Shown here in pieces: positions 2 to 40,800 of a stretch of DNA of 42,602 nt; position 1 is the first letter of the stretch; the number at the start of each line of letters is the position of its first letter. This stretch comes from an uncultured Candidatus Saccharibacteria bacterium (GTDB lineage Bacteria > Patescibacteriota > Minisyncoccia > UBA6257 > Colwellbacteraceae), in NCBI GenBank assembly GCA_964610795.1, contig CAZSWG010000001.1:1-42602 (forward strand), in the 5' to 3' direction. The notes below the pieces were generated by a model. That model was not told the DNA's origin, did no database searches, and was given only the letters and a program-made list of their open reading frames with translations. The position numbers and the translations under genes are program-made.

Positions 2-1279
2 TTAAAGTGTACTTGTGTATTTATCCATATAAGTATTTCCTACTGTTGAATATTTATTTACATAACTTGCTGGCGATGGCGACGCGCTCGCCGAGGCGCT
101 GGGAGATAAAGAAGCGCTAGGAGAAAGAGAAGCACTGGATGACCTTGATGCACTGGCCGAGGCGGAGGCAGAGGCGGATTTTGATGCCGACGCGCTGGCG
201 CTAGCGCTACCAGATGCCGACGCGCTGGCTGACGGACTAAGAGAAGCTGACTCGCTGGCGCTGGCTGACGGACTAGCTGAAGCGCTGGCTGACGCTGAGG
301 GAGATTGAGATTTACTCTCTGATGCCGAGGCACTTCTGCTGGCACTGGCACTCTCTGATTTACTCTCTGATGCCGAGGCTGATTTTGAGGCAGACTTAGA
401 TTCAGAGGCGCTCGCACTCTTTGATTCACTAGCAGAAGGGCTAAGGCTTTTAGATTCAGAGGCGCTGGGAGATAAAGAAGCGCTGGGAGATAAAGATTTA
501 GACGCTGACGCGGAAGGACTTTGTGATGGTGAAAGGCTAGCGCTTGTACTGCTTGACGGACTCTGAGAGGCCGAGGGACTCAGAGAAGGGCTTCCACTAA
601 ACGGTACATCAGTTGAAAATACTGGACTACCTGTTGCTGTTAAATCGTTATTATTAGCCGTTTCGTCAAGATAATCGTTATCAAGCTGCCAATAGGCCAC
701 AAGACCCGCTTCGTTGCCGACTAATTCCGTCTGGTATTTATCGGATATTTCCGTATCGGTTCGTATGTCATTCCAGATTCTTACTTCATCTATGAGGCCG
801 TCAAAAAACTCACTAGCAGGATCAAGTGAATTTGCACCAACATGGACTTCATAGGTATTGTTTCCGATGGTCGTTGCGCCGGTAAGCGCCATCGTATCGG
901 TAATGAGAGAACCGTTAATATAGACCTCAACGCTTGGTACGCTGATGTCTACTGCTATGGCAATATGCGTCCATGTTCCTGAAGTAATAGCAGTATTACC
1001 AACTCCAACAGTAACATTGCCACTCGCGTCACCAAAACGGATAACCGCTTTATCATCGCTCGACCGTATGGCAAATTCATATCCTCCGTTTACATCAGAT
1101 CTGAACTTGGAAATCATGGTAAAACCGGCTCCGGCCGTTGACGGTAATTGTTCCAGTTTTACCCAAGCCTCAACAGTGAAATCCGTCGATAAATCAAGAC
1201 CCGTTTGAGAAGCATCGGCAATAGAGGCATATTGTGAGCTAGAAAGTTCAAGATCAAGAGAATGGGTATTATCGGCCAT
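2..1279 (-). CDS. LamG / concanavalin-A-like lectin domain protein with a long Ser-rich low-complexity array and a Tyr/Lys-rich C-terminal motif
   Basis: ORF track gives 2..1285, but its first codon is TTG. The ATG at 1279 lies 8 nt after a -10-like box. The N-terminal ~225 aa has a Laminin_G_3-like pattern (FTVEAWVKL, GTWTHIAIAV, VYINGSL, FDGLIDEVRIWN, LVAYWQLD). Residues ~230-407 are S-x-S-A-S-x repeats. The protein ends YVNKYSTVGNTYMDKYTSTL, with TAA at 2-4. Confidence 0.8.
   Translation of the reverse strand: MADNTHSLDLELSSSQYASIADASQTGLDLSTDFTVEAWVKLEQLPSTAGAGFTMISKFRSDVNGGYEFAIRSSDDKAVIRFGDASGNVTVGVGNTAITSGTWTHIAIAVDISVPSVEVYINGSLITDTMALTGATTIGNNTYEVHVGANSLDPASEFFDGLIDEVRIWNDIRTDTEISDKYQTELVGNEAGLVAYWQLDNDYLDETANNNDLTATGSPVFSTDVPFSGSPSLSPSASQSPSSSTSASLSPSQSPSASASKSLSPSASLSPSASESKSLSPSASESKSASASESKSASKSASASESKSESASASRSASASESKSQSPSASASASASPSASASESASLSPSASASASGSASASASASKSASASASASASRSSSASLSPSASLSPSASASASPSPASYVNKYSTVGNTYMDKYTSTL
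65..598 (-). repeat. Coding low-complexity array (SPSAS / SESKS hexapeptide-like units, 18-bp periodicity)
   Basis: The translated sequence is almost only S, A, P, K, E, L and R with Ser at every second position. All reading frames are open across it. Confidence 0.9.
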
Positions 1280-1287
1280 ACCCAAAG

Positions 1288-1315: not shown

Positions 1316-2944
1316 TTACTGCAGGGTCTTTACGAGGTCTTTTCCTAATCCCCAATGAGGTACTTCTTCGCTTTCTACCCAGTTAATAAGAAGTTGTTGA
1401 TTCTTATATTGATCTTTTTCCCACCGCATACCTGTAGAATTAACACCAAAACGAATGTCTATATTAGGAGCCTCTGATTTCCACCTACCTAGGTTAAATT
1501 CATGTTTCCACGTAACTCTATGGTGAGTAAAAGGTTCAAACCCTGTGTTTCTGGTAAATTCTTCTTTCGTGAATCGTTCATATCGTTCTCTAAAATGGGT
1601 AATTGCAGCTTCCCGCCAAACACAAAGTCCGGATAGTTGGTTTACGTCATAATGTAAAGCATGGCCGTCTTCTCGTAAGTACCAGATATTTTGGTTATAG
1701 TAAAACGTATCTTTATCCGATGGAGTGAAATCAAAATGTGAAGGATGATAGAGTACGTCATGCTCACAAAAGAAAATTATATCCGACTTGCTATTTTCCA
1801 ACGCTCCCAGAATTTGTTTGAACATAGTGAGATACCCTCTTTTCAATGAAGGGAACCGCACGTTTTTAACTCCAAAGTCCATCTTTTTTAATGACGAACT
1901 GACTATAAACACACTTTTATCTTTCGTTACCTTTAAGAGTTGGTCCCGCACCGGCTTTGCTATTTTCTCGTTCAACTGATTGTCTGTATAAAATATCGCT
2001 CCCTTAGTAATTCCCCAATCGGGAGGATGAAACTTATCTAATATCCATTGGAATTTACGGGTAGCTTTGGGCCACTTATCTTTTTGAAACAACTCTCTTG
2101 AGAGTTCTCTATTTTCATTAACTTTGTTTTGAGGATTAGAATATGGGAAACCAAAATCCCCTCCACGAGTCCGGAAGCAATGCGCGTACCAAGTTTTCAT
2201 ATTGACTAAAACCTGCCCACCTGAAAGCCATGTTTTACAGGCGACCTCAACACCATTCTGTCCCCAGCTATTAAATTCTTCGCTAGTTAAATCTAATTCT
2301 AAATATTTTTGTTTCGTAACCATATAACATGATCCCTGTATGCTCATCGTCTCTCTATAATCTTTATTATAATTTGATCCTATAAGTACTCCTCTTTGAG
2401 CTTCTTCAGTTTTTGACCATCTGCCGTCGTATTGAAAATGCATCGTCTTATCAAATGTAAAAGCGTGAGTAGCAGGACTCTTTTTAGGAATCCAAACAAC
2501 ATCTTTTACTGTAGATTTACCACACTTTTCACACAATCCTGATGGGCTTTGATAACGCCTATGACCATCTGGACACACCCAATCAAAAATGTGCATATTA
2601 CGCATAATAGGAATTAAAGTTGTATCATCCCCTAATTCTTCCATTGCTTTAATCATCTTTAAATCAAAATCTTGGTCTACTGCACAATGGGCATCAAGTT
2701 TCATAACATATTTTGAATTAGATAATCTAACACCTTGATTAATAGCTCCACGCTGACCAACTGATACAGGATTATAAATTATAGCAACTCTATGATTAGA
2801 CTTAAAAGGTGGATCGGGAAGGAAACCATCTAGAACAGCTATTATTTCAGTCTGATCGCTAGTATGTTCCAGTACATCTTCTATGGTTCTGCCCATAAAC
2901 TCTTCATTTCTTCCTATAATTATTATAGAGAGCTTATATTGCAT
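1316..2944 (-). CDS. Two-domain glycosyltransferase: N-terminal GT-A (GT2/GT27-like) domain plus a C-terminal second transferase-like domain
   Basis: SIIIIGRNEE start and a DxH-type motif KLDAHCAV. WGQNGVEVACKTWLSGGQVLVNMKTWYAHCFR resembles the Gal/GalNAc-T motif and conserved His of GT27 enzymes. There is a Cys/His insertion, CPDGH...CEKCGK. The C-terminal ~230 aa carries CEHDVLYHPSHF. Confidence 0.75.
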   Translation of the reverse strand: MQYKLSIIIIGRNEEFMGRTIEDVLEHTSDQTEIIAVLDGFLPDPPFKSNHRVAIIYNPVSVGQRGAINQGVRLSNSKYVMKLDAHCAVDQDFDLKMIKAMEELGDDTTLIPIMRNMHIFDWVCPDGHRRYQSPSGLCEKCGKSTVKDVVWIPKKSPATHAFTFDKTMHFQYDGRWSKTEEAQRGVLIGSNYNKDYRETMSIQGSCYMVTKQKYLELDLTSEEFNSWGQNGVEVACKTWLSGGQVLVNMKTWYAHCFRTRGGDFGFPYSNPQNKVNENRELSRELFQKDKWPKATRKFQWILDKFHPPDWGITKGAIFYTDNQLNEKIAKPVRDQLLKVTKDKSVFIVSSSLKKMDFGVKNVRFPSLKRGYLTMFKQILGALENSKSDIIFFCEHDVLYHPSHFDFTPSDKDTFYYNQNIWYLREDGHALHYDVNQLSGLCVWREAAITHFRERYERFTKEEFTRNTGFEPFTHHRVTWKHEFNLGRWKSEAPNIDIRFGVNSTGMRWEKDQYKNQQLLINWVESEEVPHWGLGKDLVKTLQ

Positions 2945-2973
2945 ATTTGGTTCCTTTAAGCTACAATCATATT

Positions 2974-3444: not shown

Positions 3445-3451
3445 ATCTACT

Positions 3452-4234
3452 TTATCCATTTCTTATCCTTTCATTATTTTTTAAAACATCTTTAATAAAT
3501 TCTGGAGAATAACCTGCTTTTTCCGAAGCCTTAACAATTGCGTTCAAATCCTTGGGCAAACACTTCCCGTCAAAACCCCGTCTATTTTTGTATACAGTCG
3601 TAAACATTTTTCCCTGCCGTTCATCTAAAACAAATCCCTCTCTCACAAGAGAGTAATCAACTCCAAACGCTTGTGCTATATTGAAAAACTCATTACAGAG
3701 GGTAACTTTAGCCGCAATAGCGCAATTTTCCATATATTTAATGAGTTCGCTTGTCGTTTCATCTACTTGATAGTACGTCTTCGTTGCCCCGAGGACAGGG
3801 TAAAAGATATCAAGTACCTCCTCCCTGTCCCCAGGGTCGCCCCCAATTATCATAAAAGAATGATGTTGAGGGTCAGTAGGATGAGGGTAAAGCCAAAAAG
3901 GTATATAATATCCGCCTTCACCAACGTACTCGGGACTGTGGCAAATTCGCTTTCCTGTAGCCTGTTTAAGCGACTTCGTAGTACCTGGAGGGATAGTTGA
4001 TTTAATAAGGATTAAACGAGTTTTAAGCCATCCTACGACTTCCTCTACTATGGAAATGTCGCAACTTCCATCCGGAAGCATAGGGGTTGGCACACAAACG
4101 ATAGCCAATTCACATTGATTAACTTCGTCGCGACTCTTTTCAATATTCCCATGTCTATCATAAAAAATAGAATCTGGAAAAATCTTTGCATACGCTCTTC
4201 CTACATACCCTCGTCCGATAATTGCTATTTTCAT
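3452..4234 (-). CDS. Short UDP-glucose/GDP-mannose 6-dehydrogenase-family protein
   Basis: MKIAIIGRGYVGRAYA (Rossmann GxGxxG), VPTP, KSTIPPGT, NPEF-like SPEYVGEG, and the catalytic-Cys motif DGKCLPKD (compare GGSCFPKD). At only 260 aa, the C-terminal nucleotide-sugar-binding domain seems to be missing. Confidence 0.7.
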   Translation of the reverse strand: MKIAIIGRGYVGRAYAKIFPDSIFYDRHGNIEKSRDEVNQCELAIVCVPTPMLPDGSCDISIVEEVVGWLKTRLILIKSTIPPGTTKSLKQATGKRICHSPEYVGEGGYYIPFWLYPHPTDPQHHSFMIIGGDPGDREEVLDIFYPVLGATKTYYQVDETTSELIKYMENCAIAAKVTLCNEFFNIAQAFGVDYSLVREGFVLDERQGKMFTTVYKNRRGFDGKCLPKDLNAIVKASEKAGYSPEFIKDVLKNNERIRNG

Positions 4235-4236
4235 AT

Positions 4237-4443
4237 TTATTTCAAAAACCTACTCCAAAAAATTATTCCGGAAGTAATAGCACATGAAACAGCAGTCCCG
4301 CCTACAACAAAAAGTGCCAAATTCTCACTTTTTCTTCTCATCTCTTGCATCGCAGAATCTGTCTCATTTATTGATATTTCCGGTTGTGGCACTACGTCAG
4401 CTTGCGGTATTGGCTTATCTCTATTTTCTGTCAACATAATCAA
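4237..4443 (-). CDS. Small single-pass membrane protein
   Basis: 68 aa with a hydrophobic segment LALFVVGGTAVSCAITSGIIFW. It is tightly packed between the flanking genes. Confidence 0.4.
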   Translation of the reverse strand: MIMLTENRDKPIPQADVVPQPEISINETDSAMQEMRRKSENLALFVVGGTAVSCAITSGIIFWSRFLK

Positions 4444-5296
4444 GCTCCTTATATAATGTACTAATGTTCTCTATGTGATATTTTTCTGCTTTTTTAAGAC
4501 ATCTTATAGAATATCCATCATAATATGACGGTGAAGCTCTTAATTCATCTAACGCTACTAAAAGTTCTGCCAAATCACCAACAGGAACATAACAGGTTTT
4601 CATCTCTTTGAAAGCCTTTTCATCAAGGGCAATAGTCGGTATGCCAAAAGAAGCGGCATTGACTAGCTTTAACGGATTAGATAAAATTTTCTTATACGGC
4701 CTCCAAACAATTTGAATATCTATCTTCTGGTAAAAATCTATAATATCCTGTCTTGTGAAAAATCTGGAATACTCAATGAGGTTCATTCCTCTTTCTGCCA
4801 GGAGTTGTTTTAGTTCTTTTGGAAGATACAAAAACGCTTTAGCTTCTCCGATAACACCCACCGTATTTACTTCTTTCCTTATCCTTTTAACCCGTTCAAA
4901 ATTGCAATGATGTTGAGGAATAAGTACAATTTTATTAGGAATTACTTTAGACATGACTTCGTAATCCGCTTCTGAACAAACAATGACTGTTACTTCGGGG
5001 TGCTTTTGGACTAATTGACCTAAATTATGACCGTCTATTATATCTAAATAGGGATTTCCCTCAAATACAAAATCATCGCCTTCTCGTACCATTGGTTTTA
5101 CATAAATACATACGCCATTCTCGTATCCGCTTGTCGGATTAAGATTCGCACCAATGTAACCGGCTATCTGATCTCCCCGGATCATAGAAGAAACACGCAT
5201 GAGATGGCCCGCTTTCCCCTTGAGTTTCCGACTGGGATCAAACTCTTGACTAGGATTGATATTAAGAAAAGCCCTTTTTGCGAATATAGAAATCAT
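4421..5296 (-). CDS. Putative GT-B-fold glycosyltransferase
   Basis: The C-terminal region IQIVWRPYKKILSNPLKLVNAASFGIPTIALDEKAFKE resembles the donor-binding half of GT1/GT4 enzymes. It sits inside the sugar cassette. Confidence 0.4.
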   Translation of the reverse strand: MISIFAKRAFLNINPSQEFDPSRKLKGKAGHLMRVSSMIRGDQIAGYIGANLNPTSGYENGVCIYVKPMVREGDDFVFEGNPYLDIIDGHNLGQLVQKHPEVTVIVCSEADYEVMSKVIPNKIVLIPQHHCNFERVKRIRKEVNTVGVIGEAKAFLYLPKELKQLLAERGMNLIEYSRFFTRQDIIDFYQKIDIQIVWRPYKKILSNPLKLVNAASFGIPTIALDEKAFKEMKTCYVPVGDLAELLVALDELRASPSYYDGYSIRCLKKAEKYHIENISTLYKELDYVDRK

Positions 5297-5772
5297 AAGA
5301 CAAAAATCTTTACTATGTCCGCGACCTTAAGTCTTCGTCCCGGGACATTCATTTCAACATTAAAATCTGGTATCAAGTTTATCGAATGCAAAAATTCATC
5401 TTTACTCACTATATAACGGTAAACATCTTGAATCTCGGCATCCCTGTTATTTTTCAAATAATTGATAAGTGTATATGGATTAGATCCCCATGTGATATTT
5501 CCTAACCTTATAATGCAATATTTAGGAAAATTCTCTTTTACCAATCCCTCCATCTCTCTTTTATGCTGAATATACCTTGTATTCCCGTAAAAAATAGACA
5601 GTGAGCTAAAATAGACAAGTCGTTGTGACCTGTTTTGTGCTAATAATAAATCCTTTTCTCTCTGATACTCAGATTCTCTGGTTTCAAGGCTGTTAGATAC
5701 CCCTGAAGCGAAATACAGCCTTCCTGGGTCATCCTGTAAAGCGCTAGCTATGTCTCCATGACCAACTATCAT
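5293..5772 (-). CDS. Short SDR-like protein (possible nucleotide-sugar epimerase/reductase remnant)
   Basis: The ATG at 5772 forms an ATGA overlap with the upstream stop. A YxxxK motif (YIQHK) lies downstream of a Ser-rich strand (FSSLSIF). The N-terminus reads IVGHGDIASAL. This is a weak call. Confidence 0.3.
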   Translation of the reverse strand: MIVGHGDIASALQDDPGRLYFASGVSNSLETRESEYQREKDLLLAQNRSQRLVYFSSLSIFYGNTRYIQHKREMEGLVKENFPKYCIIRLGNITWGSNPYTLINYLKNNRDAEIQDVYRYIVSKDEFLHSINLIPDFNVEMNVPGRRLKVADIVKIFVL

Positions 5773-6416
5773 GTCTTTACCCAAAACCAACTTCGGTATC
5801 TATCTCTAATTTCTCCTTCTTTGTAATCTAATGAACCCACTATAAAAAGGGGTAGCATCCTATAGCTCCACACATACGCTTCCAAAGCTCTTTTAACGTG
5901 AATCAGTTTCCTGAAAGGATAACGGGCGTAATCATGTCCTGACATAATTCCCCCAACCCTCACTTTCTTCAACCAATAGTGCAAATCGTTGGTAAAGTTT
6001 ACAAAGTCATGTCCCGCGTCAATATAGACAAAATCAAGTGAATTATCAGGAAAGTCCTTTACTGCGTCCATTGAATATTTTTTAACAAACGTATAATTCT
6101 TATAGGGAGCCATTCTTTTTTGAGCTTCTTTATAAATATCATCAAAGAATTGCTGTGTTTCTCCTCCTACAAAAACTCCTTCTGGATGCGCGTCAAGTTT
6201 CCACGCATCAATTCCATAGATGGTAGCTTGGGGATTAACTTTACATAAAACTTCAGAATACTTACCCTTAAATACCCCAATTTCTGCCCCTCTATTAAAA
6301 TTCAGTTCAGCAAACAACTCAGCCATATTGTCTCGGCCTATGTTTGGAATTTCAACAATATACTGGTTTCCAATATTAAGATTGTATTTTTTTACTATGT
6401 AGTCAAATGAGTTCAT
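5769..6416 (-). CDS. Class I SAM-dependent methyltransferase (Methyltransf_24 / sugar O-MTase-like)
   Basis: EIGVFKGKYSEVL (motif I), DFVYIDAGHDF and GGIMSGHDY are typical of this family. Confidence 0.7.
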   Translation of the reverse strand: MNSFDYIVKKYNLNIGNQYIVEIPNIGRDNMAELFAELNFNRGAEIGVFKGKYSEVLCKVNPQATIYGIDAWKLDAHPEGVFVGGETQQFFDDIYKEAQKRMAPYKNYTFVKKYSMDAVKDFPDNSLDFVYIDAGHDFVNFTNDLHYWLKKVRVGGIMSGHDYARYPFRKLIHVKRALEAYVWSYRMLPLFIVGSLDYKEGEIRDRYRSWFWVKT

Positions 6417-6483
6417 AACCCGAAAATACGTATTAGTATGTACATTGCTATAGAACCAATAAATGAACCCAAAATTAAATCTT

Positions 6484-6993
6484 TCATACCCAAAAATCTT
6501 CTAAATCAACAAAGTTTGATAGAACGGTTGCATGATTTTTGTCCTTATCCCAAATGATCCGGTACTTAAATAGTGAGTATATTTCCGAGTAGTGATATGT
6601 TTTATCTTTGTTACCGTTTGAGTCATGGATAATGATGTACTTTGCAAATTTAGCAAGCCTCTTAATCTCCTCAACACGGCTAGAATCGGGTGTTTGATCT
6701 ATCAAAACAACATCCCATGGCTTCTCAATCTTCGCGTCCGAGTATTTTTCAACAAAGTTTATTTCGTGTGTAGGACACTTATAACCATAATCTATAAAAA
6801 ATTGCATCCAAGATTTAGTATTCTCATAGGATACTAATTTACGATTAGAAAGATAACATTGATAATGAAGATAAGGAGTACTAAACACTCCCATTCCCAA
6901 CTCTAGGACATCTCCCGTAGTTTTAGACATCGCCTTAATAAGCGCTGGCAGATGAGTACCATAATTGCCGGATACGAACATTTTATATGCCAT
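6484..6993 (-). CDS. Class I methyltransferase-fold protein
   Basis: VLELGMGVFSTP (motif I-like), VVLIDQTPDS and IIIHDSN. A strong SD (GGAGGAAA) precedes the ATG. Confidence 0.45.
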   Translation of the reverse strand: MAYKMFVSGNYGTHLPALIKAMSKTTGDVLELGMGVFSTPYLHYQCYLSNRKLVSYENTKSWMQFFIDYGYKCPTHEINFVEKYSDAKIEKPWDVVLIDQTPDSSRVEEIKRLAKFAKYIIIHDSNGNKDKTYHYSEIYSLFKYRIIWDKDKNHATVLSNFVDLEDFWV

Positions 6994-7882
6994 TTTCCTC
7001 CTGCCATTTATCTAGTAACACTCTCCAATTTTCGGACCATGTAGGCATTAACTCAAATTTGTCTAAAAACCACTCAAAACTATGGAGATAGTTTCCTTTA
7101 TCTCCTACAAAATGTCTGGCTGCTATATCATAGGATTTAACCTCTTGAGCATGATCCATATGATAACCACGTTTGTTCCCTTGCTGATGGAGATGTGCAT
7201 ACCAGGTATTCTTATTGACCATTACTTTACCACCCATTAACCAATTCTTCAGTGCTAACCAGATTGGCTCCATTGCATGTCCGTAGGGGTCAATGTTTGG
7301 GAAGCCCCCCAATTCAAAATATCTATCTTTTGTCATAAACCAACCGGAACCGTGAATTTGTGGGGTTTCATCCACGCCAAGATGACTTGTAAGCCTCTCT
7401 TGAGTTCTCTCTGGCCAATGACCACCTGCCTTGAATCTAAAACCCTTTGGATCAGTGAAGGGACAACAGAGATAAAAGTAATCGTAAAACTCTTCTTTGC
7501 CATCTCTCATCTGAATACTCCAATCGTCTTTGATTATCTTGAAGCGGGGCATGACTATCCAATCTTCTTCCATATCAGCTTGGAGAATCTCATCAAAGCC
7601 TTTTCCGAAGGAACAGTGTGCATCAGACTTGTAGATATACTTGCCAGTAGCCATAGCGGCCATAGCGTTTATGTTGGTTTTGATGCCGACGACCGAAGGG
7701 AAGTGGACTACTTGTGTGTTAGAAACATGGGGGATATCTTCTACTCCATAACCACATTCACCATCAAACCCAACGATAACTTCATACTCTCCGGTCGTAT
7801 TCTCATAGATACTTTTAAGAGTCCGACTGAGGTTCTCTAATTTCTCCCCCCTCGCCGGTATTATTATTGACACTTTGCTCAT
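6983..7882 (-). CDS. GT-A glycosyltransferase, GT27-like paralog 2
   Basis: VSIIIPARGE, a DxH motif at KSDAHCSF, and LALKNWLMGGKVMVNKNTWYAHLH. It is collinear with the 1316..2944 N-terminal domain and with 8834..9724. Confidence 0.75.
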   Translation of the reverse strand: MSKVSIIIPARGEKLENLSRTLKSIYENTTGEYEVIVGFDGECGYGVEDIPHVSNTQVVHFPSVVGIKTNINAMAAMATGKYIYKSDAHCSFGKGFDEILQADMEEDWIVMPRFKIIKDDWSIQMRDGKEEFYDYFYLCCPFTDPKGFRFKAGGHWPERTQERLTSHLGVDETPQIHGSGWFMTKDRYFELGGFPNIDPYGHAMEPIWLALKNWLMGGKVMVNKNTWYAHLHQQGNKRGYHMDHAQEVKSYDIAARHFVGDKGNYLHSFEWFLDKFELMPTWSENWRVLLDKWQEENGI

Positions 7883-8409
7883 GGAATCCTTCCTATAATT
7901 ATCAATCTATCGTCGTATCTTTTTCCCACCTTCTTAACATTTACATAAAATCCAAGGAGCGCTTTTATTAACTCCTTGCCCACGCTCTCATCTGCCACAT
8001 CCTCAATTACATAAATAGTTTTTTTACTAAGCATGGGCATGACTGTTGCACAAGTAAAATACTGATCTTCCGGCTTGTGGCTTCCGTCATCAATAACTAA
8101 ATCAATGTCTGAACCAATTACGTCAATTAAATAAATTAGGTCTTTTTCTATCCCCTGATGACACAGATACGCTACAATACGATCTTCCTTTAAAAGACGT
8201 GTTTCATCAATTTCAGCCCCGTAAATCATTGCGTTAGGAAAGAAGTCTCTGAACATTCTCAAGCCCGCCCCCTCTCCAACACCTATTTCCAGAACCTTTT
8301 TAACCTCATTCCGCCTGTCTTTGAACAGACCATAATAAACAGGCAGGTAGTTATGCTTTCCTATCTTATCGGTGCCGTATTTTTTACCCAGCTTTTCTAA
8401 ATCGTTCAT
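7879..8409 (-). CDS. Class I SAM-dependent methyltransferase
   Basis: KYGTDKIGKHNYLPVYY followed by VLEIGVGEGAGLRMF and VIDDGSH. This is a signature common in sugar and polyketide O-methyltransferases. Confidence 0.7.
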   Translation of the reverse strand: MNDLEKLGKKYGTDKIGKHNYLPVYYGLFKDRRNEVKKVLEIGVGEGAGLRMFRDFFPNAMIYGAEIDETRLLKEDRIVAYLCHQGIEKDLIYLIDVIGSDIDLVIDDGSHKPEDQYFTCATVMPMLSKKTIYVIEDVADESVGKELIKALLGFYVNVKKVGKRYDDRLIIIGRIP

Positions 8410-8837
8410 TTTTGATCTTTGATTCTCTGCTTTAATCTTCCCGATCCAAAATTATGATCTCTCTTGTTGCGATAAATTTCTATACCTCGCTTTTCGCATA
8501 TATTCATTCCTGTCACCGGATGGTCCCTGGGTTCGTCTCCCATTATTCGTACATCTATATCAAGTGTACTTAAAATCTCTTTCAATTCTTCTTCGTTTTG
8601 ATAAACAATTATTTCATCAACATACTTACACGACTTAACCTGTATTTGTCTCTCTACAAGAGATTGGACAGGCTTATTTTTCCAAGGTCTATCTATTGAA
8701 GGATCAGTTTCAATACCAACCAATAAGTAGTCACAAACCTCTTTACACTCTTGAAGCATAACAGCATGACCCGCATGAAAAAGGTCAAAAGCACCGGCTA
8801 CAAATCCTACCCTATCGTTTTTTTGTATTTCTCTCAT
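8406..8837 (-). CDS. Cytidylyltransferase-family nucleotidyltransferase (TagD / HldC-RfaE domain II-like)
   Basis: GFVAGAFDLFHAGHAVML contains the HxGH motif. LLVGIETDPS ... KPVQSLVERQ is collinear with heptose-1-P adenylyltransferase and glycerol-3-P cytidylyltransferase. Confidence 0.8.
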   Translation of the reverse strand: MREIQKNDRVGFVAGAFDLFHAGHAVMLQECKEVCDYLLVGIETDPSIDRPWKNKPVQSLVERQIQVKSCKYVDEIIVYQNEEELKEILSTLDIDVRIMGDEPRDHPVTGMNICEKRGIEIYRNKRDHNFGSGRLKQRIKDQK

Positions 8838-9724
8838 TGTATCCAGCCCATATTTCTAATTTCTTCTTTCCAATTACTCGGCCAACTTGGCATACCGAGA
8901 AATTTATCATCTATAAACCATTCAAACCTGTAAACCATATTCGGCTCTCTATTGTTGAGCCAATGATCTGCTGACCAGCTAGAAGCCTCTATAGTACCTC
9001 CGGGGAATTTATAGAATCGCCCATAATGATTCCCCTTGTGGAGATGTGCATACCAAGTCTTCTTATTAACTTTCAATGCTCCGCCGCCGAACCATGTCTT
9101 AAACCCTATCTCCTGAGACTCCTGAGCGAACTGACCATAGCCTTCTTCATGTAGGCCATGAAGAAAATTATCAAAGTAGTCTTTAGTCATAAAATAGCAC
9201 GAACCCTGCATTGAAGGCGTATCATCAATTTCTTCTTTTATATATTCTTGCCATTTTTCTCTTTTCCACGGTACACCGTGCATACCATCATCGTGATCTT
9301 TACCTTTTCGGGGGAAATCTATATACATATAATCAATAGGATATTTATTATCAGTCCGTTCCTCTATTTTCCAATTTTCCGCATCCAGCGCATATCTTCT
9401 TGGTATCTGTACCCAATTATCCTTCAGGTGATTTTCAATGAGGATTTTTCCGAAGTTTGGGCCAAAAGCACAGTGATCGTCGGTTTTCATAATATATTTA
9501 CCTTTAGCCATAGCTACACAGGCGTTTATACCCGCCCTCAAACCCACAGGAGCGCTTGGATGGATATAGTGGACTCTTTCATCCTCTACAAGCGACTCGG
9601 GCCATTTCTCATCAATGTTGACTATAACCTCTAACTCACACCCAGCGTTTTTGAGTACATCTTCTATGGTTTTAGTAGTAAAAGGTGAATTTCTATTTGG
9701 TATAACAACCGATAACTCAATCAT
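8834..9724 (-). CDS. GT-A glycosyltransferase, GT27-like paralog 3
   Basis: LSVVIPNRN, a DxH motif at KTDDHCAF, SMQGSCYFMTKDYF, and GFKTWFGGGALKVNKKTWYAHLH. Confidence 0.75.
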   Translation of the reverse strand: MIELSVVIPNRNSPFTTKTIEDVLKNAGCELEVIVNIDEKWPESLVEDERVHYIHPSAPVGLRAGINACVAMAKGKYIMKTDDHCAFGPNFGKILIENHLKDNWVQIPRRYALDAENWKIEERTDNKYPIDYMYIDFPRKGKDHDDGMHGVPWKREKWQEYIKEEIDDTPSMQGSCYFMTKDYFDNFLHGLHEEGYGQFAQESQEIGFKTWFGGGALKVNKKTWYAHLHKGNHYGRFYKFPGGTIEASSWSADHWLNNREPNMVYRFEWFIDDKFLGMPSWPSNWKEEIRNMGWIQ

Positions 9725-10514: not shown

Positions 10515-11525
10515 TTATGGGAATGAAATGCTTGCACTCGGGCTTGCACTAGCTGATGGCGAAAGTGATCCAGATGGACTGTAGGACGCGCTGGCTGATC
10601 TTGACGCGCTGGCCGATGGCGATGCGCTCCCTGACGGGCTAAGAGAGGGAGAAGCCGACTTGGATGCACTGGCAGACGGACTCTTAGAAGCGCTTGCTGA
10701 CCTTGATCCGCTAGCACTACCAGATGCCGAGGCTGAAGCGCTTGCGGAAGCCGAGGCTGATTTTGAGGCTGATGCCGAGGCGCTAGCGCTGGCTGATCTT
10801 GACGCGCTGGCCGATTCCGAAGCAGACGGGCTGGCAGAACCAGATGGACTGAGTGATGCAGATACGCTGGCGCTTTCCGAGGCAGACGGACTAAGGGAAG
10901 CCGATGCACTAGCGCTTTCCGAGGCTGATGCACTGGCGCTTTCCGAGGCTGAAGGAGAAGCAGATTTGGAGGCGCTGGCGCTTTCCGAGGCTGAAGGAGA
11001 GAGTGATGGTGACGGGCTTGACGACTTTGATTCTGACTTTGAGGCGCTTTTGGAAGCAGAGGCTGACGGGCTAGCGCTCCCAGACGGCGAAACCGATGGA
11101 CTAACCGAAGGTGATACTGACGGACTTTCCGATGGTGAAGGACTTACCGATGGCGATGGCGAAGCTACTGCCGAACCTACTATACTCCAGATAGCGGCAG
11201 TTGATGTACCAGTATTCCTATACGCATTTCTGCCGGTTTTGGTAAGGTCATAGAAAATTGCACCTACTTTGAACCCCGAATCTCCTGTTGGAAGTGAATT
11301 ACCCTCTGCCTCTAAAATATTGTCAGTTGAAACATGATCTTCATTGGTCGCACTTGCAACTCGGTCATTATCCCATCGTAAAACCCTGTTTGTTCTATAC
11401 GGTAAAAGTGCCGTGAGAAAGTTTGCTTCAACAGTGGTCCGAAGTCCACTAGCTTTGGCCTCAATTCGTGCAAGCTCGGCTTGTGTATCTTTTGATAAAT
11501 CTGCTTTACGCTTAAATACTGCCAT
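10515..11525 (-). CDS. Head-associated protein with a ~120-aa globular N-terminus and a ~215-aa Ser/Pro/Ala tail (possible decoration protein)
   Basis: It lies immediately downstream of the major capsid gene. From residue ~121 to the C-terminus it is made of SPSxS/SASAS repeats. An AGGA lies 5 nt before the ATG. Confidence 0.65.
   Translation of the reverse strand: MAVFKRKADLSKDTQAELARIEAKASGLRTTVEANFLTALLPYRTNRVLRWDNDRVASATNEDHVSTDNILEAEGNSLPTGDSGFKVGAIFYDLTKTGRNAYRNTGTSTAAIWSIVGSAVASPSPSVSPSPSESPSVSPSVSPSVSPSGSASPSASASKSASKSESKSSSPSPSLSPSASESASASKSASPSASESASASASESASASASLSPSASESASVSASLSPSGSASPSASESASASRSASASASASASKSASASASASASASGSASGSRSASASKSPSASASKSASPSLSPSGSASPSASASRSASASYSPSGSLSPSASASPSASISFP
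10518..11165 (-). repeat. Coding Ser/Pro/Ala low-complexity array
   Basis: Same repeat class as 65-598, 37439-37642, 37962-40589 and 41220-42491. Confidence 0.9.
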
Positions 11526-35256: not shown

Positions 35257-36210
35257 TTACTTTCCTAAAACGACATACCATAATACTCTTGATCCTCCCA
35301 AAGTCACATTTCCTCCCGAACTAGATTTCAATTGTATTTTTATAGTATGACTTCCGGATGCGATAGTAGAAACTATAGTTGTTGAAGACGTAGTAAAATA
35401 TTTTCCTGCCGTTTCTTCAATGGAAGGAGTAGACATTTCTCCTGCAACTTGAGAACCATCAAGGTCTATTATAGAAATAGGTGTAACTATATTTGTAGGA
35501 GATGAATCCGGGCTATAGCCTCTTACTGAAGCTCCTATCAAAACTTTTGATGATCTTGCCAGCGTAAATGATAAAGTCATATCTGTTACATCAACAAACG
35601 ACTGGTTTGTAGTAGAAAATGAAGCTGTTTGAGAAATGCTATCTGCTGCAAAATTAGCTGTACTTACTAATCCTGTTGCATCTATAATTGTGGTTTCAGT
35701 ATCATCTTTTACCGTGATATTGCCTTTAGTTACCACAACATTTCCTTCAGCATCAACGGTAAACTTATCATTGATATTTATACTTCCGCCCTCAATTTCA
35801 GCATCAGAGACTAAACTTCCTGCCCGTACTTCTCCCTTAAATACCGCATCTCCCGTAGTTCCGTCTATCGCAAGGGTAGTTATTCCTGCTATATCTCTTG
35901 CAGTTAATCCATTGGGTGTAATTCTTAAATCTCCCGAAATTCCTTTCTTAAAATCACCAACTTGAAACCCCCCGGATTGCTGAAGGTCAAATTCTTCAAG
36001 TATCTTGCGACTTCTGGTATTAAGCGCTGTACTTAATAATTCAACCGCTATTCTTTTTTTAGGAAAAGTTTTTTCTTTTGTAGCAGTTGGGGCATAGTTT
36101 CCTTCTCCCACAGCTTGAGCTTGTGATAGAACAGGCTGTACGACCTCTCCGGGAAAAGGGTTCTCGCTTACAATTTCCGGTTCAAAATTCTTATCTTTCA
36201 TATTACTCAA
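35257..36210 (-). CDS. Tail fibre / spike-like protein
   Basis: Beta-rich repeats (DLRITPNGLTARDIAGITTLAIDGTTGDAVFKG, NINDKFTVDAEGNVVVTKGNITV) and a C-terminal beta-sandwich-like end. It overlaps the upstream gene by 8 nt. Confidence 0.55.
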   Translation of the reverse strand: MSNMKDKNFEPEIVSENPFPGEVVQPVLSQAQAVGEGNYAPTATKEKTFPKKRIAVELLSTALNTRSRKILEEFDLQQSGGFQVGDFKKGISGDLRITPNGLTARDIAGITTLAIDGTTGDAVFKGEVRAGSLVSDAEIEGGSININDKFTVDAEGNVVVTKGNITVKDDTETTIIDATGLVSTANFAADSISQTASFSTTNQSFVDVTDMTLSFTLARSSKVLIGASVRGYSPDSSPTNIVTPISIIDLDGSQVAGEMSTPSIEETAGKYFTTSSTTIVSTIASGSHTIKIQLKSSSGGNVTLGGSRVLWYVVLGK

Positions 36211-37804
36211 AGTAGGTGATAATTCTGAAAATCTCCGGGGTAGTATTTCCGCTGGGAGTCATAATTATTCGCGGCTCGTATATGTCCATTTCTGCACCTA
36301 TTCTAAATACCGCTTTCTTTCCACCTGTTGAAGTAAATGCTTGGTTTCCATCTGCTGTATAAGCCTGTACCCAATCACCGGATTTATTCTTCTGATAATA
36401 GAAGTAAACACTACACCCTACGGGCAGTTCATCCATAAACACTTCAACACGGTCAAATTTTGTAATCTGTTCTGCTTTCTTAATCGGCGTCCTATATTCC
36501 AACCCTTCCCAGGTCCCCTGAGCCTTTGCAGTACTATCTACGGCCTTTACACCAAAATCATCCCCGTCTTTATATGAAGCTATAGTAGTTCCGTCTATAT
36601 TGACTACAGCGCCTATTTCGTCTACATCCAAGGCATACTCAAGATTCATGGTAAAAGGCTGTTCTTTATTTTTACGCCCGTAATAATAAAGACCATTTTT
36701 ACCTGAATCAGCGTCAAATACTCCCCAGATAGACATATTTCCCAATGATTGACGATCCACCCAGCTATCAGCTCCGAATACCCAATCAAATATCTCAATC
36801 TGGTCTACTTCGTTTGCTACTCCTCCCGGATTTACTCTGCCCCCGCCCGGGAATCTTTTAACAGGCATTGAATCAGTGAAGTTCGCAAAAAACAAATTTC
36901 CGTCATCTCCTATCTGAACAAGAGGATACTCACAATCTATTGCTCCATTTACTCCTTTATTGGGATAACCGGCAGGGTACGTACCGGAAACTGCCCTACC
37001 GTTGCGTTCAATAATGGTTTTTATTAGTCTTCCGGGAATTATGTCAAGTGCTTCATTAGTCCACGAATCGTCATATCCAACCAATGCGAGTTTAGATCCA
37101 TTAGCGATATAGTTTGCTCCGCCTACCTGTTTCATTGTGTGCCAGTCAGTACCCGTTAAGTTATCTGCTATTTCAGTTACATCACCCCAAGTTGACGAAC
37201 CAGGCAGAGGCTTTCGCTTTATTGAAGTAGCAGTAGCCCATTGAAGGTATGTTGTACCGCTATCTGAGGGTTTTTCTATAGCTCCTTTAATTGCCCCGTC
37301 TGCGTCCGTATAAACCATTCTTGTAAATCCATCGGGATACCGTCTATAAATATGCCCGGCGTTCCCAAATCCGTACGTGTTGCCATCCGATGCTTTTACC
37401 CAAGCGATAATCAAATCAACATATACATTATTAAGCCCTGCTGATGGAGAAAGAGAAGGACTAACCGAAGAAGAAGGTGAAGATGAAGCTGATGGGCTTA
37501 AACTTTTAGAGGCGCTTCTTGAGGCTGAAGCACTAGGTGATAGAGAAGGTGAAACTGATCCGCTGGGACTTTTAGAAGCACTAGTGCTGGCACTAGGCGA
37601 TTGGGATGAACTTTGCGAAACGGAGGCAGATTGTGAATGGCTGGTATCAAAAAGTCCTTCTTCTTTAAGTGCTTGTCCACAAGAAAGGGTATCATTTGCC
37701 TTGCGTATATCAATTCCGCTTGCGAACTTAAAAGCGCCACGGATACCTCTGTCATTGAATGACGAAATTCCGCCCTCAAAACTTTTAACTGTGTACGTTT
37801 GCAT
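36203..37804 (-). CDS. Tail-module protein with a Ser-rich array inserted after residue ~54 and a large beta-rich body
   Basis: 533 aa. Residues 55-122 read SQSASVSQSSSQSPSAS...SPSLSPSA. The remainder is Gly/Asp/Trp/Tyr-rich and propeller-like in character. Confidence 0.6.
   Translation of the reverse strand: MQTYTVKSFEGGISSFNDRGIRGAFKFASGIDIRKANDTLSCGQALKEEGLFDTSHSQSASVSQSSSQSPSASTSASKSPSGSVSPSLSPSASASRSASKSLSPSASSSPSSSVSPSLSPSAGLNNVYVDLIIAWVKASDGNTYGFGNAGHIYRRYPDGFTRMVYTDADGAIKGAIEKPSDSGTTYLQWATATSIKRKPLPGSSTWGDVTEIADNLTGTDWHTMKQVGGANYIANGSKLALVGYDDSWTNEALDIIPGRLIKTIIERNGRAVSGTYPAGYPNKGVNGAIDCEYPLVQIGDDGNLFFANFTDSMPVKRFPGGGRVNPGGVANEVDQIEIFDWVFGADSWVDRQSLGNMSIWGVFDADSGKNGLYYYGRKNKEQPFTMNLEYALDVDEIGAVVNIDGTTIASYKDGDDFGVKAVDSTAKAQGTWEGLEYRTPIKKAEQITKFDRVEVFMDELPVGCSVYFYYQKNKSGDWVQAYTADGNQAFTSTGGKKAVFRIGAEMDIYEPRIIMTPSGNTTPEIFRIITYFE
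37439..37642 (-). repeat. Coding Ser/Pro/Ala low-complexity array (short copy)
   Basis: Same repeat class as the other arrays. Confidence 0.85.
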
Positions 37805-37838: not shown

Positions 37839-40800
37839 CTAGTCTGGTGAGCTGGGTAACGCATCCCACTCCTTGTATTTTGCTTCATAATCATTACCTA
37901 ACTCTGAATACTTATCACCATAAGTGTTTCCAGTAGCTGAGTATTTATCAACATATTCTATAGGAGATTGGGATGGACTTGCACTTGGACTGGCGCTTGC
38001 TGAAGCGGAAGGACTTTTTGAAGCACTAGCCGATTTAGAAGCACTGGCGGAAGCACTTTTACTTTCAGAAGCTGAAACTGAAGCCGAAGCAGATTTAGAC
38101 TCACTAGCGCTAGCTGAGGCACTGGCAGACGCAGACTCGCTTTTACTTTCTGAAGCACTTGGGGAAAGGGATTTACTTTCGCTGGCGCTGGCAGACTTAC
38201 TTTCCGATGCCGAAACAGATTTAGATTCCGATGCAGATACGCTTGCTGACTCTGAAACACTGGCGGATTTAGATTCAGAGGCAGATGGGCTTAAAGAACC
38301 ACTGGGTGAAAGCGATGCACTTTCAGAAGCCGAGGCTGATCTTGAGACTGATGCACTAGCGGACCCACTTGCGCTAGGGCTTAAAGATGCCGATGCACTT
38401 GCACTTCCACTTGCTGAAGCGGAGGCGGAAGGGCTGAGTGAGGCAGAAGCTGAAACCGACCCTGAAGCTGATTCAGATGCACTGGCGCTCTTGCTCTCTG
38501 AGGCACTCGGAGATAGAGATTTGGATTCTGAAGGAGATTCGGAAGCCGACATAGATGCTGAAACACTTTTAGATTCTGATGCGGAAGGAGAAACACTTTT
38601 AGATTCTGATGGCGATTCAGAGGCACTTGCTGAAACGGAGACGGACTTACTTTCACTTGCGGATGGACTTAAAGACTTTGATTCACTAGCCGATTCCGAA
38701 GCACTGGCGCTGGCAGATCCTGATGCTGAAGGACTGACAGATGCTGACGCGCTGGCTGAAGGGGATAGAGAGGCACTAGGACTGAGACTGGCACTGGGAC
38801 TTAGGCTTTTGCTTGCTGAGGCCGATGGAGACAGAGATGCACTAGCACTTGCGCTGGGAGACAAAGAGGCTGAAGGTGAAAGTGAAGCCGATGGTGAAAG
38901 ACTAGCCGAGGGACTAAGAGACGCTGATGGACTCAAACTGGCGCTGGCAGAGACAGATGGAGATACGCTGGCGCTAGCAGAAGAGCTGGGAGAAACAGAT
39001 GCTGATGGAGATAGTGAAGCGGATGGAGAGAGACTGGCGCTAGGACTAAGGGACGTAGATAGGGATAAAGAGGCTGATGGAGATAAAGACGCCGATGGGG
39101 ACAAACTGGCACTAGCACTTGCGCTGGGTGACAAACTTGCCGATGCACTAGCTGAAGGCGATAGACTGGCAGATGGGGATAAACTGGAACTGGGACTGAG
39201 TGATGCTGATGGACTAAGTGACGCTGAAGGCGAGAGTGATGCACTAGGACTTAATGATGCTGACGGACTTAATGAAGCACTAGCACTCGCTGATGGCGAT
39301 AAAGACGCCGAAGCCGAAGCCGATGGACTTTGAGAAGCGCTCGGCGACAAAGAAGCCGAAGGTGATAATGAAGCAGATGGGGATAAAGATGCCGAGGGAG
39401 AAAGACTTGCACTGGCACTAGGAGATTCTGATGCAGATGCTGAAGCAGAAGCGCTAGCTGAAGCACTAGCAGATGGAGAAAGAGAGGCACTAGGACTTAA
39501 AGATGCCGATGGGGAGAGTGAAGCGGATGGACTTTGACTCGGACTTTCAGAAGGACTTTCGCTTAGACTAGCTGAAGCTGAAGCACTCTTTGATGCACTA
39601 GCACTAGGAGATAAGGAAGCACTAGGAGAAAGAGATGCGCTAGGCGAGAGAGAAGCTGAGGGAGATAACGAAGGACTTTCACTTAGTGATTCAGAGGGTG
39701 AGGCTGATTTACTAGCTGATGCACTTTCTGATGCACTGGGTGACTGAGAAGCTGATGGTGAAATACTAGCTGAAGGACTTAAACTAGCTGAAGGACTAAG
39801 AGAGGCACTGGCGCTAGCGGAAGGACTAGCGGAGGCAGAAGCAGAAGCCGATGGACTTTCAGACGCGGAAGGACTAAGTGAAGCACTTGGTGACAGTGAT
39901 GCACTAGCTGAAGCACTCGGAGATAAAGAAGCACTCTCGGAAGCCGATGGACTCAAAGAAGCAGAAGGCGACAAACTGGCACTTGGTGATAAGGAAGCGC
40001 TGGGACTTAGAGAAGGAGATGCACTAGCACTTGGTGACAGTGATGCACTAGCTGAAGCACTCGGTGACTGAGAGGCTGAGGGACTAAGCGATGCTGATGG
40101 TGAAAGCGATGCACTTGGGCTTAAAGATGCTGAAGCACTAGCGCTGGGGGAGAGAGATGCTGAAGCACTAGCGCTGGGACTCAAACTCGCCGATGGAGAT
40201 AAGGAAGCAGAGGGACTTAGAGAAGCAGAAGGAGACAAACTAGCACTGGCTGACGCTGAAGGGGACAAAGACGCTGAAGCTGAAACACTTGGACTAAGGC
40301 TAGCGCTTGGTGAGAGGGAAGCCGAAGGACTAAGAGAGGCTGAGGGACTAAGCGATGCTGATGGTGATAGTGATGCTGATGCAGAAGCACTGGGTGAAAG
40401 ACTAGCCGAAGCTGAGGCGCTAGGAGACAATGAAGCCGATGGACTCAAACTGGCTGATGGGCTGAGAGATGCTGATGGAGACAAGGAAGCCGAAGCACTG
40501 GCTGATGGGCTGAGTGAAGCACTAGCACTCGCTGATGGAGATAAGCTGGCGCTGAGGGAGAGAGAGGCGGAGGGGGAAACTGTAGATGCCGGAGAGAACC
40601 CTGCCGCTACTTGTGCCCAAGTATCGGAAGCGTCAAGGGTTTCACTCATTGTAGACACCCCAGCGGGGTTTACTGGTCCTTCGTGGGTGATGCAAGAAGT
40701 TCCCCCAAGAAAACCCGATGACCAGATAAAGTCGGCTCTTTCGGTCTGGTTCGCACCTGGAGAGTAATTCGTTCCGGCACCATTGTCCAAGCGATTAACA

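Follow-up and report, generated by a model that had tools for sequence, protein, structure and literature searches.

The locus described here raises the question of what three paralogous sugar-adding enzymes are doing among the structural genes of a phage, and on what acceptor they act. The window (the whole stretch of DNA analysed, 42,602 nucleotides) is the genome of an uncultured phage whose host is probably an ultra-small member of the Patescibacteria. Judged from sequence and predicted fold, the closest known relatives of the three enzymes appear to be the animal enzymes that initiate mucin glycosylation, and the reading we regard as most likely is that they form a sister family to GT27 in prokaryotes and phages, which O-glycosylates serine repeats of the virion. 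We found no earlier account of these enzymes or of such a system in the literature.

Consistent with the first-pass annotation, the three open reading frames, all on the minus strand (Table 1), are collinear paralogues, with 28–32% identity over about 290 residues in pairwise BLASTP (E 1e-27 to 2e-46). The D-x-H noted in each is present (KLDAHC, KSDAHC and KTDDHC) within a common K-x-D-x-H-C that is followed downstream by W-Y-A-H, and the blocks quoted for the 542-aa protein, WGQNGVEVACKTWLSGGQVLVNMKTWYAHCFR, and for the 296-aa protein, FKTWFGGGALKVNKKTWYAHLH, were found as given. Two further motifs had been drawn too broadly: SxQGSCY[FM][MV]TK occurs in two paralogues but not in the 299-aa protein, which reads QIHGSGWFMTK, and the N-terminal strand pattern is present but loose (IIIGRNEE, IIIPARGE, VVIPNRNS). 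Among family members, in the numbering of the 296-aa paralogue, D82 is found in 301/301, H84 in 300/301 and H227 in 301/301, and these residues align with the LDAHC and GH(V)FR of GalNAc-T1; the resulting Asp-x-His...His is essentially invariant and is predicted from sequence to be the metal triad, with a role in binding Mn2+. In the aligned Gal/GalNAc-T block the first Glu is kept in 210/301, the second in 251/301 and the Trp in 293/301, and the GG is kept, whereas the Asn of WGGEN is not. The flexible-loop motif YKFPGGT of the 296-aa paralogue aligns with YTFPGGT of GalNAc-T1, and the best single-sequence PDB matches of this paralogue are ppGalNAc-Ts (E 5e-5).

Whether the family lies nearer to GT27 or to GT2 was addressed with a profile built from 45 diverse relatives and searched against PDB sequences. 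All solved GT27 enzymes (14 distinct sequences) matched it over positions 4–256 with E values of 9e-20 to 7e-15, whereas matches to GT2 structures (E 1e-11 or worse) did not extend past about position 100. The comparison with ppGalNAc-T domains suggested in the first-pass annotation gave the same picture: for the AlphaFold model of the 542-aa protein (pLDDT 86.5) the top 50 Foldseek matches in the PDB are all GT27, with 15–19% identity over ~345 aligned columns, the domain compared being the N-terminal one. A resemblance to GT27 at a profile E of 9e-20 and a Foldseek E of 6.6e-16 far exceeds what chance would give. By profile and predicted fold alike, these are GT-A enzymes with GT27 as their nearest solved relatives. 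All three proteins also score above the gathering threshold of PF00535 (Glycos_transf_2; E 2.6e-15, 8e-13 and 1.9e-11) in their N-terminal halves only; because PF00535 covers GT27 enzymes too, this match does not separate GT2 from GT27. No full-length likeness to characterised GT2 enzymes or to an NCBIfam equivalog was found, and the three enzymes have no PHROG match and no NCBIfam model near cut-off. Membership of GT27 itself is not supported to the same degree: identity is low, PF02709 (the Gal/GalNAc-T motif region) matches in only 3/45 members (best E 7e-4), and there is neither a match to the ricin-type lectin domain (PF00652) nor an anchor in the three proteins. The 296- and 299-aa proteins stop where the catalytic domain stops, and in all three the first beta strand, as read from sequence, begins at residue 4–5 (MIELSVVIP, MSKVSIIIP, MQYKLSIII), leaving no room for a signal anchor. 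We think it fairly probable that the paralogues are soluble, cytoplasmic, metal-dependent GT-A glycosyltransferases from a large family, spanning hundreds of clusters at 50% identity, that occurs in Patescibacteria and in their phages. We lean to the same degree toward the view that no other prokaryotic family known is as close to the eukaryotic GT27 polypeptide GalNAc-transferases. A tblastn search found no homologue of the 296-aa enzyme in GenBank phages.

The Cys/His insertion and second domain pointed out earlier in the 542-aa paralogue are both real features of the protein. The insertion (C-x3-H...C-x2-C) is conserved and zinc-ribbon-like and lies within the N-terminal GT27-like domain; the C-terminal domain is predicted to have a generic GT-A fold with E-H-D at the DxD position, has no Pfam match, is unclassified, has PBCV-1 A64R among its fold matches and is found as a stand-alone protein in other loci. 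Because this second domain folds as a GT-A transferase in the model, the protein is plausibly bifunctional.

Table 1. Array-protein and cassette features of the window, in order of position.
Feature	Position	Strand	Basis or detail
Putative virion protein (427 aa): concanavalin-A-like lectin domain and C-terminal (S-X)n array (219-415)	2..1285	-	PF13385, E 4.4e-26; PHROG 'virion structural protein'
Plausibly bifunctional 542-aa transferase	1316..2944	-	N-terminal GT27-like domain (~residues 1-310; D84-x-H86, H255) and C-terminal GT-A domain (312-542)
UDP-glucose/GDP-mannose dehydrogenase-like protein (260 aa)	3452..4234	-	PF00984 and PF03721
Short GT-B-like protein (291 aa), C-terminal half Glyco_trans_1_4-like	4421..5296	-	PF13692, E 3.5e-5, below cut-off
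Conserved cassette protein, no assigned function (165 aa)	5293..5790	-	no family match
Methyltransf_24 SAM-dependent methyltransferase (215 aa)	5769..6416	-	PF13578, E 7.4e-14
Conserved cassette protein, no assigned function (169 aa)	6484..6993	-	no Pfam/NCBIfam match
GT27-like GT-A glycosyltransferase, paralogue 2 (299 aa)	6983..7882	-	KSDAHC, WYAH
Methyltransf_24-like SAM methyltransferase (176 aa)	7879..8409	-	weak: PF13578, E 6.8e-5, just under cut-off
Cytidylyl/adenylyl-transferase-like enzyme (143 aa)	8406..8837	-	PF01467, E 7.6e-15
GT27-like GT-A glycosyltransferase, paralogue 1 (296 aa)	8834..9724	-	D82-x-H84, H227, loop YKFPGGT
336-aa protein: 110-aa domain and C-terminal (S-X)n array (111-336)	10515..11525	-	directly downstream of major capsid gene
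533-aa tail-region protein with N-terminal (S-X)n array (47-130)	36203..37804	-	array statistics
1568-aa protein: two (S-X)n arrays (8-448, 646-1536) around ~200-aa globular domain	37839..42545	-	

The candidate acceptors are five arrays in four proteins, which are strict (Ser-X)n repeats of about 49% serine, almost free of threonine and up to ~890 residues long. All six serine codons are used in the arrays of the 1568-aa protein, and serine in the arrays is selected at the protein level. The gene for the 427-aa lectin-domain protein, a putative acceptor, sits directly downstream of the gene for the 542-aa transferase; the 336-aa protein is by its gene position a putative head-decoration acceptor, and in its relatives the protein end lies 0–4 residues from the array. 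Gene position and a single PHROG match suggest that the array proteins are part of the virion. The first-pass annotation had also seen in the serines preceding each proline the GT27 preference for Pro at +1/+3. In the largest array Ser does stand at -1 and -3 of Pro (97/97 and 95/97), but it stands equally at +1 (95/97); because a strict (Ser-X)n array puts Ser at every second position, the pattern is trivial and the argument an artefact.

The proposed tie between the enzymes and Ser-repeat proteins is supported by gene context. In phages the enzyme genes lie within the structural module, with array genes on both flanks, and a same-strand (Ser-X)n open reading frame is found in 72/80 viral loci holding a relative of the enzyme, although these loci are largely from related phages and do not amount to 72 independent events. 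In 12/13 determinable viral loci an array follows the long bifunctional gene at a distance of no more than 3 kb, and some related viral loci have, adjoining arrays, just a single short GT27-like gene and a single long one. Relatives identified through the capsid are all close (65–84% identity), and every sufficiently long contig among them has both arrays and enzymes, so that they offer no informative contrast. A chromosomal cassette of host type, found in Patescibacteria MAGs, has its copy in the phage; on the chromosome it sometimes adjoins giant (Ser-X)n proteins, as at the chromosomal locus L148, whose equivalent cassette lies beside giant (Ser-X)n open reading frames. Chromosomal cassettes hold a separate orthologue for every one of the three paralogues (at 48–57% identity for the 299-aa paralogue); the three must therefore be old and non-redundant.

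The chromosomal loci also supply grounds for a different acceptor. One could envision that the GT27-like enzymes build or modify glycans not attached to protein, for instance an envelope polysaccharide of the host, a polymer akin to teichoic acid or a lipid-linked glycan. They would then form an auxiliary or host-conversion module, and the Ser-X arrays would be flexible linkers with no part in it. Most Patescibacteria MAG cassettes have no array nearby, a Ser-rich array lying within 10 kb in only 12/67 loci by a strict and 17/67 by a relaxed definition and following the long transferase in only 5/19; neighbouring TagD/RfaE-like nucleotidyltransferase, sugar dehydrogenase and RmlD/epimerase genes typify polysaccharide pathways; and sugar genes of Patescibacteria phages have been published as host-surface auxiliary genes (PMC12911398). 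However, the placement of the phage enzymes within the structural module, the pairing of the long transferase with an array in nearly all viral loci that could be scored, the polypeptide acceptors of all the nearest characterised relatives, and the finding of no flippase, polymerase, lipid-carrier transferase or membrane-spanning glycosyltransferase among the cassette proteins scanned lead us to consider a non-protein acceptor unlikely.

The remainder of the cassette (1316–9724) adds to the three paralogues and the fused second GT-A domain a GT-B-like protein, a nucleotidyltransferase, a truncated sugar dehydrogenase and two or three methyltransferases; together with the arrays it occupies about one third of the 42.6-kb genome. 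To judge from its family matches, the 143-aa enzyme (best NCBIfam models rfaE domain II and glycerol-3-phosphate cytidylyltransferase, all below cut-off) probably makes an NDP-activated donor of the CDP-glycerol or ADP-heptose type, and the 215-aa protein, with orthologues in L148, L102, L115 and L084, is probably a sugar O-methyltransferase. The dehydrogenase-like protein lacks the C-terminal UDP-binding domain, matching positions 72–296 of 413 of TIGR03026. Orthologues of the 169-aa protein (61–73% identity) hold the equivalent position in loci L102 and L084, and the 165-aa and 291-aa GT-B-like proteins each have a 54% orthologue in the chromosomal cassette L148.

The best overall explanation, and one to which we give somewhat better than even weight, is that the GT27-like cassette glycosylates the (Ser-X)n virion arrays, although a predicted GT27-like fold does not by itself prove a peptide acceptor. 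We infer the acceptor, the sugars and the order of action as follows. During infection the cassette would O-glycosylate array serines on at least four virion proteins, namely the product of the capsid-adjacent gene, the lectin-domain protein and two from the tail region; one of the GT27-like enzymes would place the first sugar onto Ser, the remaining catalytic domains would extend it and methyltransferases would cap it, so that the particle would acquire a mucin-like glycan coat. Initiation by GtfA/B is of the GT-B (GT4) type. Alternatively, the arrays could be glycosylated with a first sugar supplied by the GT-B-like protein (4421–5296), a candidate initiating transferase that would act in the manner of GtfA/B or SdgA/B of Gram-positive bacteria, or by a host enzyme, the three GT27-like paralogues only elongating from sugar to sugar. 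In the Ser-repeat systems known from bacteria the first step falls to GT-B (GT4) enzymes (PMC3794999), the GT-B-like gene is kept in the chromosomal cassette, and three old paralogues with a fourth GT-A domain would suit multi-step elongation. Nevertheless, the GT-B-like protein, which is short, falls under the Pfam cut-off and matches no PDB sequence, some viral loci with arrays hold, of the GT27-like genes, only one short and one long one, and all characterised proteins that match across the whole catalytic domain are initiating polypeptide transferases; this division of labour therefore seems to us rather improbable, slightly more so than a non-protein acceptor. Glycosylation of phage DNA as hypermodified bases that evade restriction, a frequent task of phage glycosyltransferases (PMC12619734), is rejected as very improbable, since no obvious base-hydroxymethylation or hypermodification gene was seen among the open reading frame translations read (the family-library scan covering the cassette and some structural reading frames), the cassette also occurs in cellular chromosomes adjoining surface-protein genes, and the fold relatives are protein transferases.

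More tentatively, and at somewhat less than even odds, GT27-type polypeptide O-glycosyltransferases with mucin-like Ser-repeat acceptors may be a native protein-glycosylation system of the Patescibacteria that phages have captured whole for coating their particles. On that reading no mucin-type system would have been known before from prokaryotes or viruses, and the initiating enzymes of eukaryotes (GT27/GT60) would gain a candidate sister or source lineage. Mucin-type initiation is described as belonging to animals, through GT27, while protists have GT60 and apicomplexans received theirs by lateral transfer (PMC8724618); a family with the GT27 metal triad and fold adjoining dense Ser arrays makes the origin of such enzymes directly testable. 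In phages of Patescibacteria, sugar and 'concanavalin' genes are at present taken for auxiliary metabolic genes (PMC12911398); they may serve to build the virion instead. That about one third of the genome appears to go into a glycan coat bears on adsorption, on shielding from immunity or defence and on mimicry of the host surface, and such a coat would be relevant to the poorly understood triads of phage, Patescibacteria and host. Soluble, lectin-free bacterial-type polypeptide transferases could also help in making mucin-like glycoproteins in bacteria.

Of the systems already known, CAZy GT27 of animals and apicomplexans is the closest in its enzymes: the GT-A domain aligns end to end, with the LDAHC-type DxH and downstream His, a partly kept Gal/GalNAc-T-like block (W-G/A-x-E...W-x-x-GG), the YxFPGG loop motif in the 296-aa paralogue, and an association with dense Ser-rich arrays as presumed acceptors. 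The phage and prokaryotic enzymes differ in having no ricin-type lectin domain or signal anchor, in being apparently cytoplasmic rather than Golgi-lumenal, in their 15–19% identity and lack of the WGGEN Asn, and in arrays almost free of Thr. GT60, the protist polypeptide alpha-GlcNAc-transferases including the cytoplasmic Skp1 Gnt1, is related to GT27 and initiates O-glycosylation; by their description (PMC8724618) the Skp1 enzymes are soluble and cytoplasmic, as the short, anchor-less phage sequences would suggest of the present family, but GT60 is eukaryotic, and no GT60 entry was among the PDB sequence matches of our profile at E <= 1. Ser-dipeptide repeats are O-glycosylation acceptors in the SRR and SD-repeat adhesins of Gram-positive bacteria, and those systems (GtfA/B, SdgA/B; PMC7948813, PMC3794999) share with the phage long Ser-dipeptide repeats and cytoplasmic, co-located multi-enzyme clusters that include bifunctional elongating transferases. 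They use GT-B (GT4) initiation and accessory Sec, whereas here a GT27-like GT-A is found and the carriers would be virion proteins; the cassette proteins scanned include no Sec or Asp families of the SecA2/SecY2/Asp export kind and no GtfA/GtfB-type initiating pair, only the 291-aa GT1_4-like protein below the Pfam cut-off. Virion glycosylation encoded by the phage itself is reported for mycobacteriophages of the Che8 type, whose capsid and tail-tube subunits carry the glycans at their C-termini (work cited in PMC12619734). Like these phages and chlorovirus PBCV-1 (capsid transferase A64R), the present phage has its transferases in or near the structural module and would glycosylate its structural proteins in the cytoplasm; unlike them, it uses other enzyme families and would devote to the purpose repeat arrays that reach ~890 residues.

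The first-pass annotation had described three collinear paralogous glycosyltransferases, and the three open reading frames are present as described, with 28–32% identity between them (E 1e-27 to 2e-46), their DxH motifs (KLDAHC, KSDAHC, and KTDDHC), and their C-terminal blocks, which terminate in TWYAH. The mid-region motif attributed to all three is found in two of the proteins and is missing from the third. In an alignment of 45 diverse representatives, the only invariant positions are D82, H84, G174, and H227 (numbered as in the 296-aa enzyme), and the Asp-x-His...His triad is retained in 301, 300, and 301, respectively, of 301 family members from fetched loci.

The sole Pfam match of the enzymes, PF00535, covers their N-terminal half, and searches of NCBIfam and PHROGs returned nothing usable. 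As single sequences, the 296-aa and 542-aa proteins have polypeptide GalNAc-transferases as their best PDB matches (E 5e-5 and 1e-3; matches spanning the Gal/GalNAc-T motif region), and the 299-aa protein matches PDB weakly (E 0.2). For the 296-aa protein, similarity extends into the catalytic flexible loop (YKFPGGT, compared with YTFPGGT in GalNAc-T1). Searching 1.84 billion representatives with a profile of the three paralogues gave 345 clusters below E 1e-30 and 914 below E 1e-10; tandem or multi-domain proteins were frequent among the matches. The 45-member profile aligned with every solved GT27 enzyme over positions 4–256 (E 9e-20 to 7e-15), whereas GT2 enzymes (Leptospira GT, GalT1, chondroitin synthase, SpsA, and others) aligned over the first ~100 positions only. 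Modeled with AlphaFold (pLDDT 86.5), the 542-aa protein drew only GT27 structures as its top 50 Foldseek matches (E 6.6e-16 to 7e-13, ~345 columns, 15–19% identity), and nothing placed the enzymes firmly in a non-protein GT2 subfamily, the outcome that the first-pass annotation had named as refuting its reading. Judged by sequence, we nevertheless file them as a GT27-like sister family and not as GT27, because they lack the lectin domain and leave no room for a membrane anchor, because PF02709 matches only 3 of the 45 members, and because the Asn of WGGEN is unconserved.

The 542-aa protein had also been proposed to be bifunctional. Residues 312–542, modeled separately (pLDDT 84.7), adopt a generic GT-A fold. 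No one family dominates its matches, which at E ~1e-5 comprise GT27, AvpGT, heparosan synthase, B4GALNT1, GlcAT-P, GT6 enzymes, the PBCV-1 capsid GT A64R, and TarP; a Pfam scan of this domain gave no match. Its E83-H84-D85 (domain numbering) is invariant and occupies the DxD position, where strand 4 ends, and in related loci the domain is fused in 55 ORFs and stands alone in 84. A bifunctional enzyme is thus a well-supported prediction. In the first domain, the C, H, C, and C residues of an insertion are nearly invariant and the insertion is modeled as a beta hairpin, which is consistent with a zinc ribbon. Some orthologues (P0124–P0130, P0170–P0218) reach ~790–880 aa, with ~250 extra residues, and tandem GT27-like fusions as long as 1352 aa occur elsewhere in the family (P0241–P0248).

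Features of the window and of related chromosomal loci (L148, L102, and L115, from Patescibacteria MAGs)
Feature	Sequence	Position	Strand	Remark
ConA-like lectin protein	window	2-1285		carries array
GT27-like, 542 aa	window	1316-2944	-	cassette
HNH_3 homing endonuclease	window	2947-3444	+	cassette, opposite strand
UDP-glucose-dehydrogenase-like, truncated	window	3452-4234	-	cassette; without C-terminal UDP-binding domain
GT27-like, 299 aa	window	6983-7882	-	cassette
GT27-like, 296 aa	window	8834-9724	-	cassette
Cytidylyl/adenylyl-transferase-like	window			cassette
Methyltransf_24	window			cassette
Methyltransf_24-like, weaker	window			cassette
Two conserved unknowns	window			cassette
Short GT-B-like	window			cassette
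Tad2-like ORF, 97 aa	window	9725-10018	-	Pfam match
Array protein	window	10515-11525		adjoins capsid gene
Major capsid protein	window	11623-12729		P22-coat-like by tblastn
Portal	window	14371-16149		translation read by eye
Terminase	window	16189-17553		translation read by eye
Putative C5 cytosine DNA methyltransferase	window	21015-21905	-	by eye: FAGVGG, GFPCQ, ENV
HNH-like endonuclease	window	23910-24482	-	by eye
HNH-like endonuclease	window	26614-27075	+	by eye
533-aa protein	window			carries array
1568-aa protein	window			carries array
Array-antisense shadow ORFs	window	10660-11253, 37924-39333, 41179-41979	+
Array-antisense shadow ORFs	L148	14005-15525, 16645-18054	-
Extra cassette genes	L115	12840-14362
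Extra cassette genes	L102	15006-15920
Extra cassette genes	L148	197-2021, 7477-9350

The window is a tailed-phage genome, in which all but one or two of the long ORFs lie on the minus strand and which also encodes a 1839-aa tail protein and lysis genes. A public ENA assembly contains a protein identical to the 296-aa enzyme, which has more than 1000 relatives, many on 41–48-kb contigs; the phage therefore belongs to an abundant uncultured clade. Its sugar-gene cassette (1316–9724) sits between two flanking array genes. The HNH_3 ORF, one of just two long non-shadow plus-strand ORFs, abuts the dehydrogenase-like gene, whose truncation may be due to this insertion. The 97-aa ORF that lies between the first GT and the array gene on the capsid side matches a Tad2-like family above the cut-off (E 9.4e-11). 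Tad2 is Thoeris anti-defence 2, and on this similarity the ORF may be an anti-defence gene of a presumed Patescibacteria phage.

Five (S-X)n arrays are distributed over four proteins, and in relatives of the array protein adjoining the capsid gene, 0–4 residues separate the array from the protein end. Serine is nearly confined to one register (in the largest array, for example, 437 of 441 serines), X being Ala > Pro > Leu > Lys/Glu/Val/Gly, with Thr almost missing. The Ser found at −1 and −3 of each Pro had been read as an acceptor signal; it is instead a by-product of this strict periodicity, and Ser is equally common at +1 and −1 of Pro. All six Ser codons, from both codon boxes, are used in proportions like those of the remaining genome, so selection is on the protein rather than on a DNA repeat. 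The proteins at 2–1285 and 37839–42545 share a Tyr/Lys-rich C-terminal tail after the array, one ending ...YVNKYSTVGNTYMDKYTSTL; the tail recurs in relatives (L033, L054) and may serve in docking or assembly. The antisense frames of the arrays form long shadow ORFs rich in Asp/Glu/Ala/Leu/Gly, and it was these and not the Ser-X frame that gene calling selected in the public record from which L148 comes, so arrays are probably under-reported in databases.

In one-genome-per-species data the family is almost confined to Patescibacteria MAGs. Many family-bearing MAGs (L102, L133, and other TPA_asm loci), including a 938-kb complete chromosome, are titled "uncultured Gammaproteobacteria" amid Patescibacteria matches, and these labels look unreliable. 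Several MAG loci are chromosomal, with ribosomal protein L1 near L102, LeuRS near L115, and Rho, TatABC, and sortase near L148. Separate orthologues of the 296-aa and 542-aa enzymes and an orthologue of the cassette methyltransferase occur in all three. The 299-aa enzyme has its own orthologue in L148 and L102, and one or two of the loci hold orthologues of the two unknowns and of the GT-B-like protein. It follows that the phage carries a copy of a host-type cassette and that its three paralogues represent old, distinct orthogroups. Chromosomal cassettes also hold RGP (GT75, reversibly glycosylated polypeptide)-like, weakly TOD1/MUCI70-like GT, and RmlD/epimerase genes and two sugar-1-phosphate nucleotidyltransferases, which hint at the sugars used.

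We consider it fairly probable that these genes form a cytoplasmic O-glycosylation system, in which a GT27-like enzyme would begin glycans on array serines and the remaining GT domains and methyltransferases would elaborate them, yielding a particle with a mucin-like coat. A same-strand (S-X)n ORF occurs in 72 of 80 IMG/VR loci bearing a relative of the enzyme (40–82% identity), usually with 2–4 GT27-like genes; in 12 of the 13 viral loci where this could be determined, an array comes within 3 kb after the long bifunctional gene; and giant (S-X)n ORFs directly follow the long GT in L148. A Ser-rich array lies within 10 kb of only 12 (strict) or 17 (relaxed) of 67 MAG loci, which counts against a link between arrays and enzymes, and we think it unlikely, though worth weighing, that the enzymes act on a non-protein acceptor. 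Somewhat less probable again is that the GT-B-like protein or a host enzyme initiates and the paralogues are elongators. DNA glycosylation seems very improbable.

A full-text literature search turned up no account of the enzyme family or of Ser-X arrays in virions, nor any mention of GT27-like enzymes from phages or Patescibacteria. A study of Patescibacteria phages counted concanavalin-like and nucleotide-sugar genes among the auxiliary metabolic genes (PMC12911398). Glycosylation of phage virions and O-glycosylation of Ser repeats in proteins are already known in kind; the novelty here lies in the enzyme family, in its host range, and in the scale.
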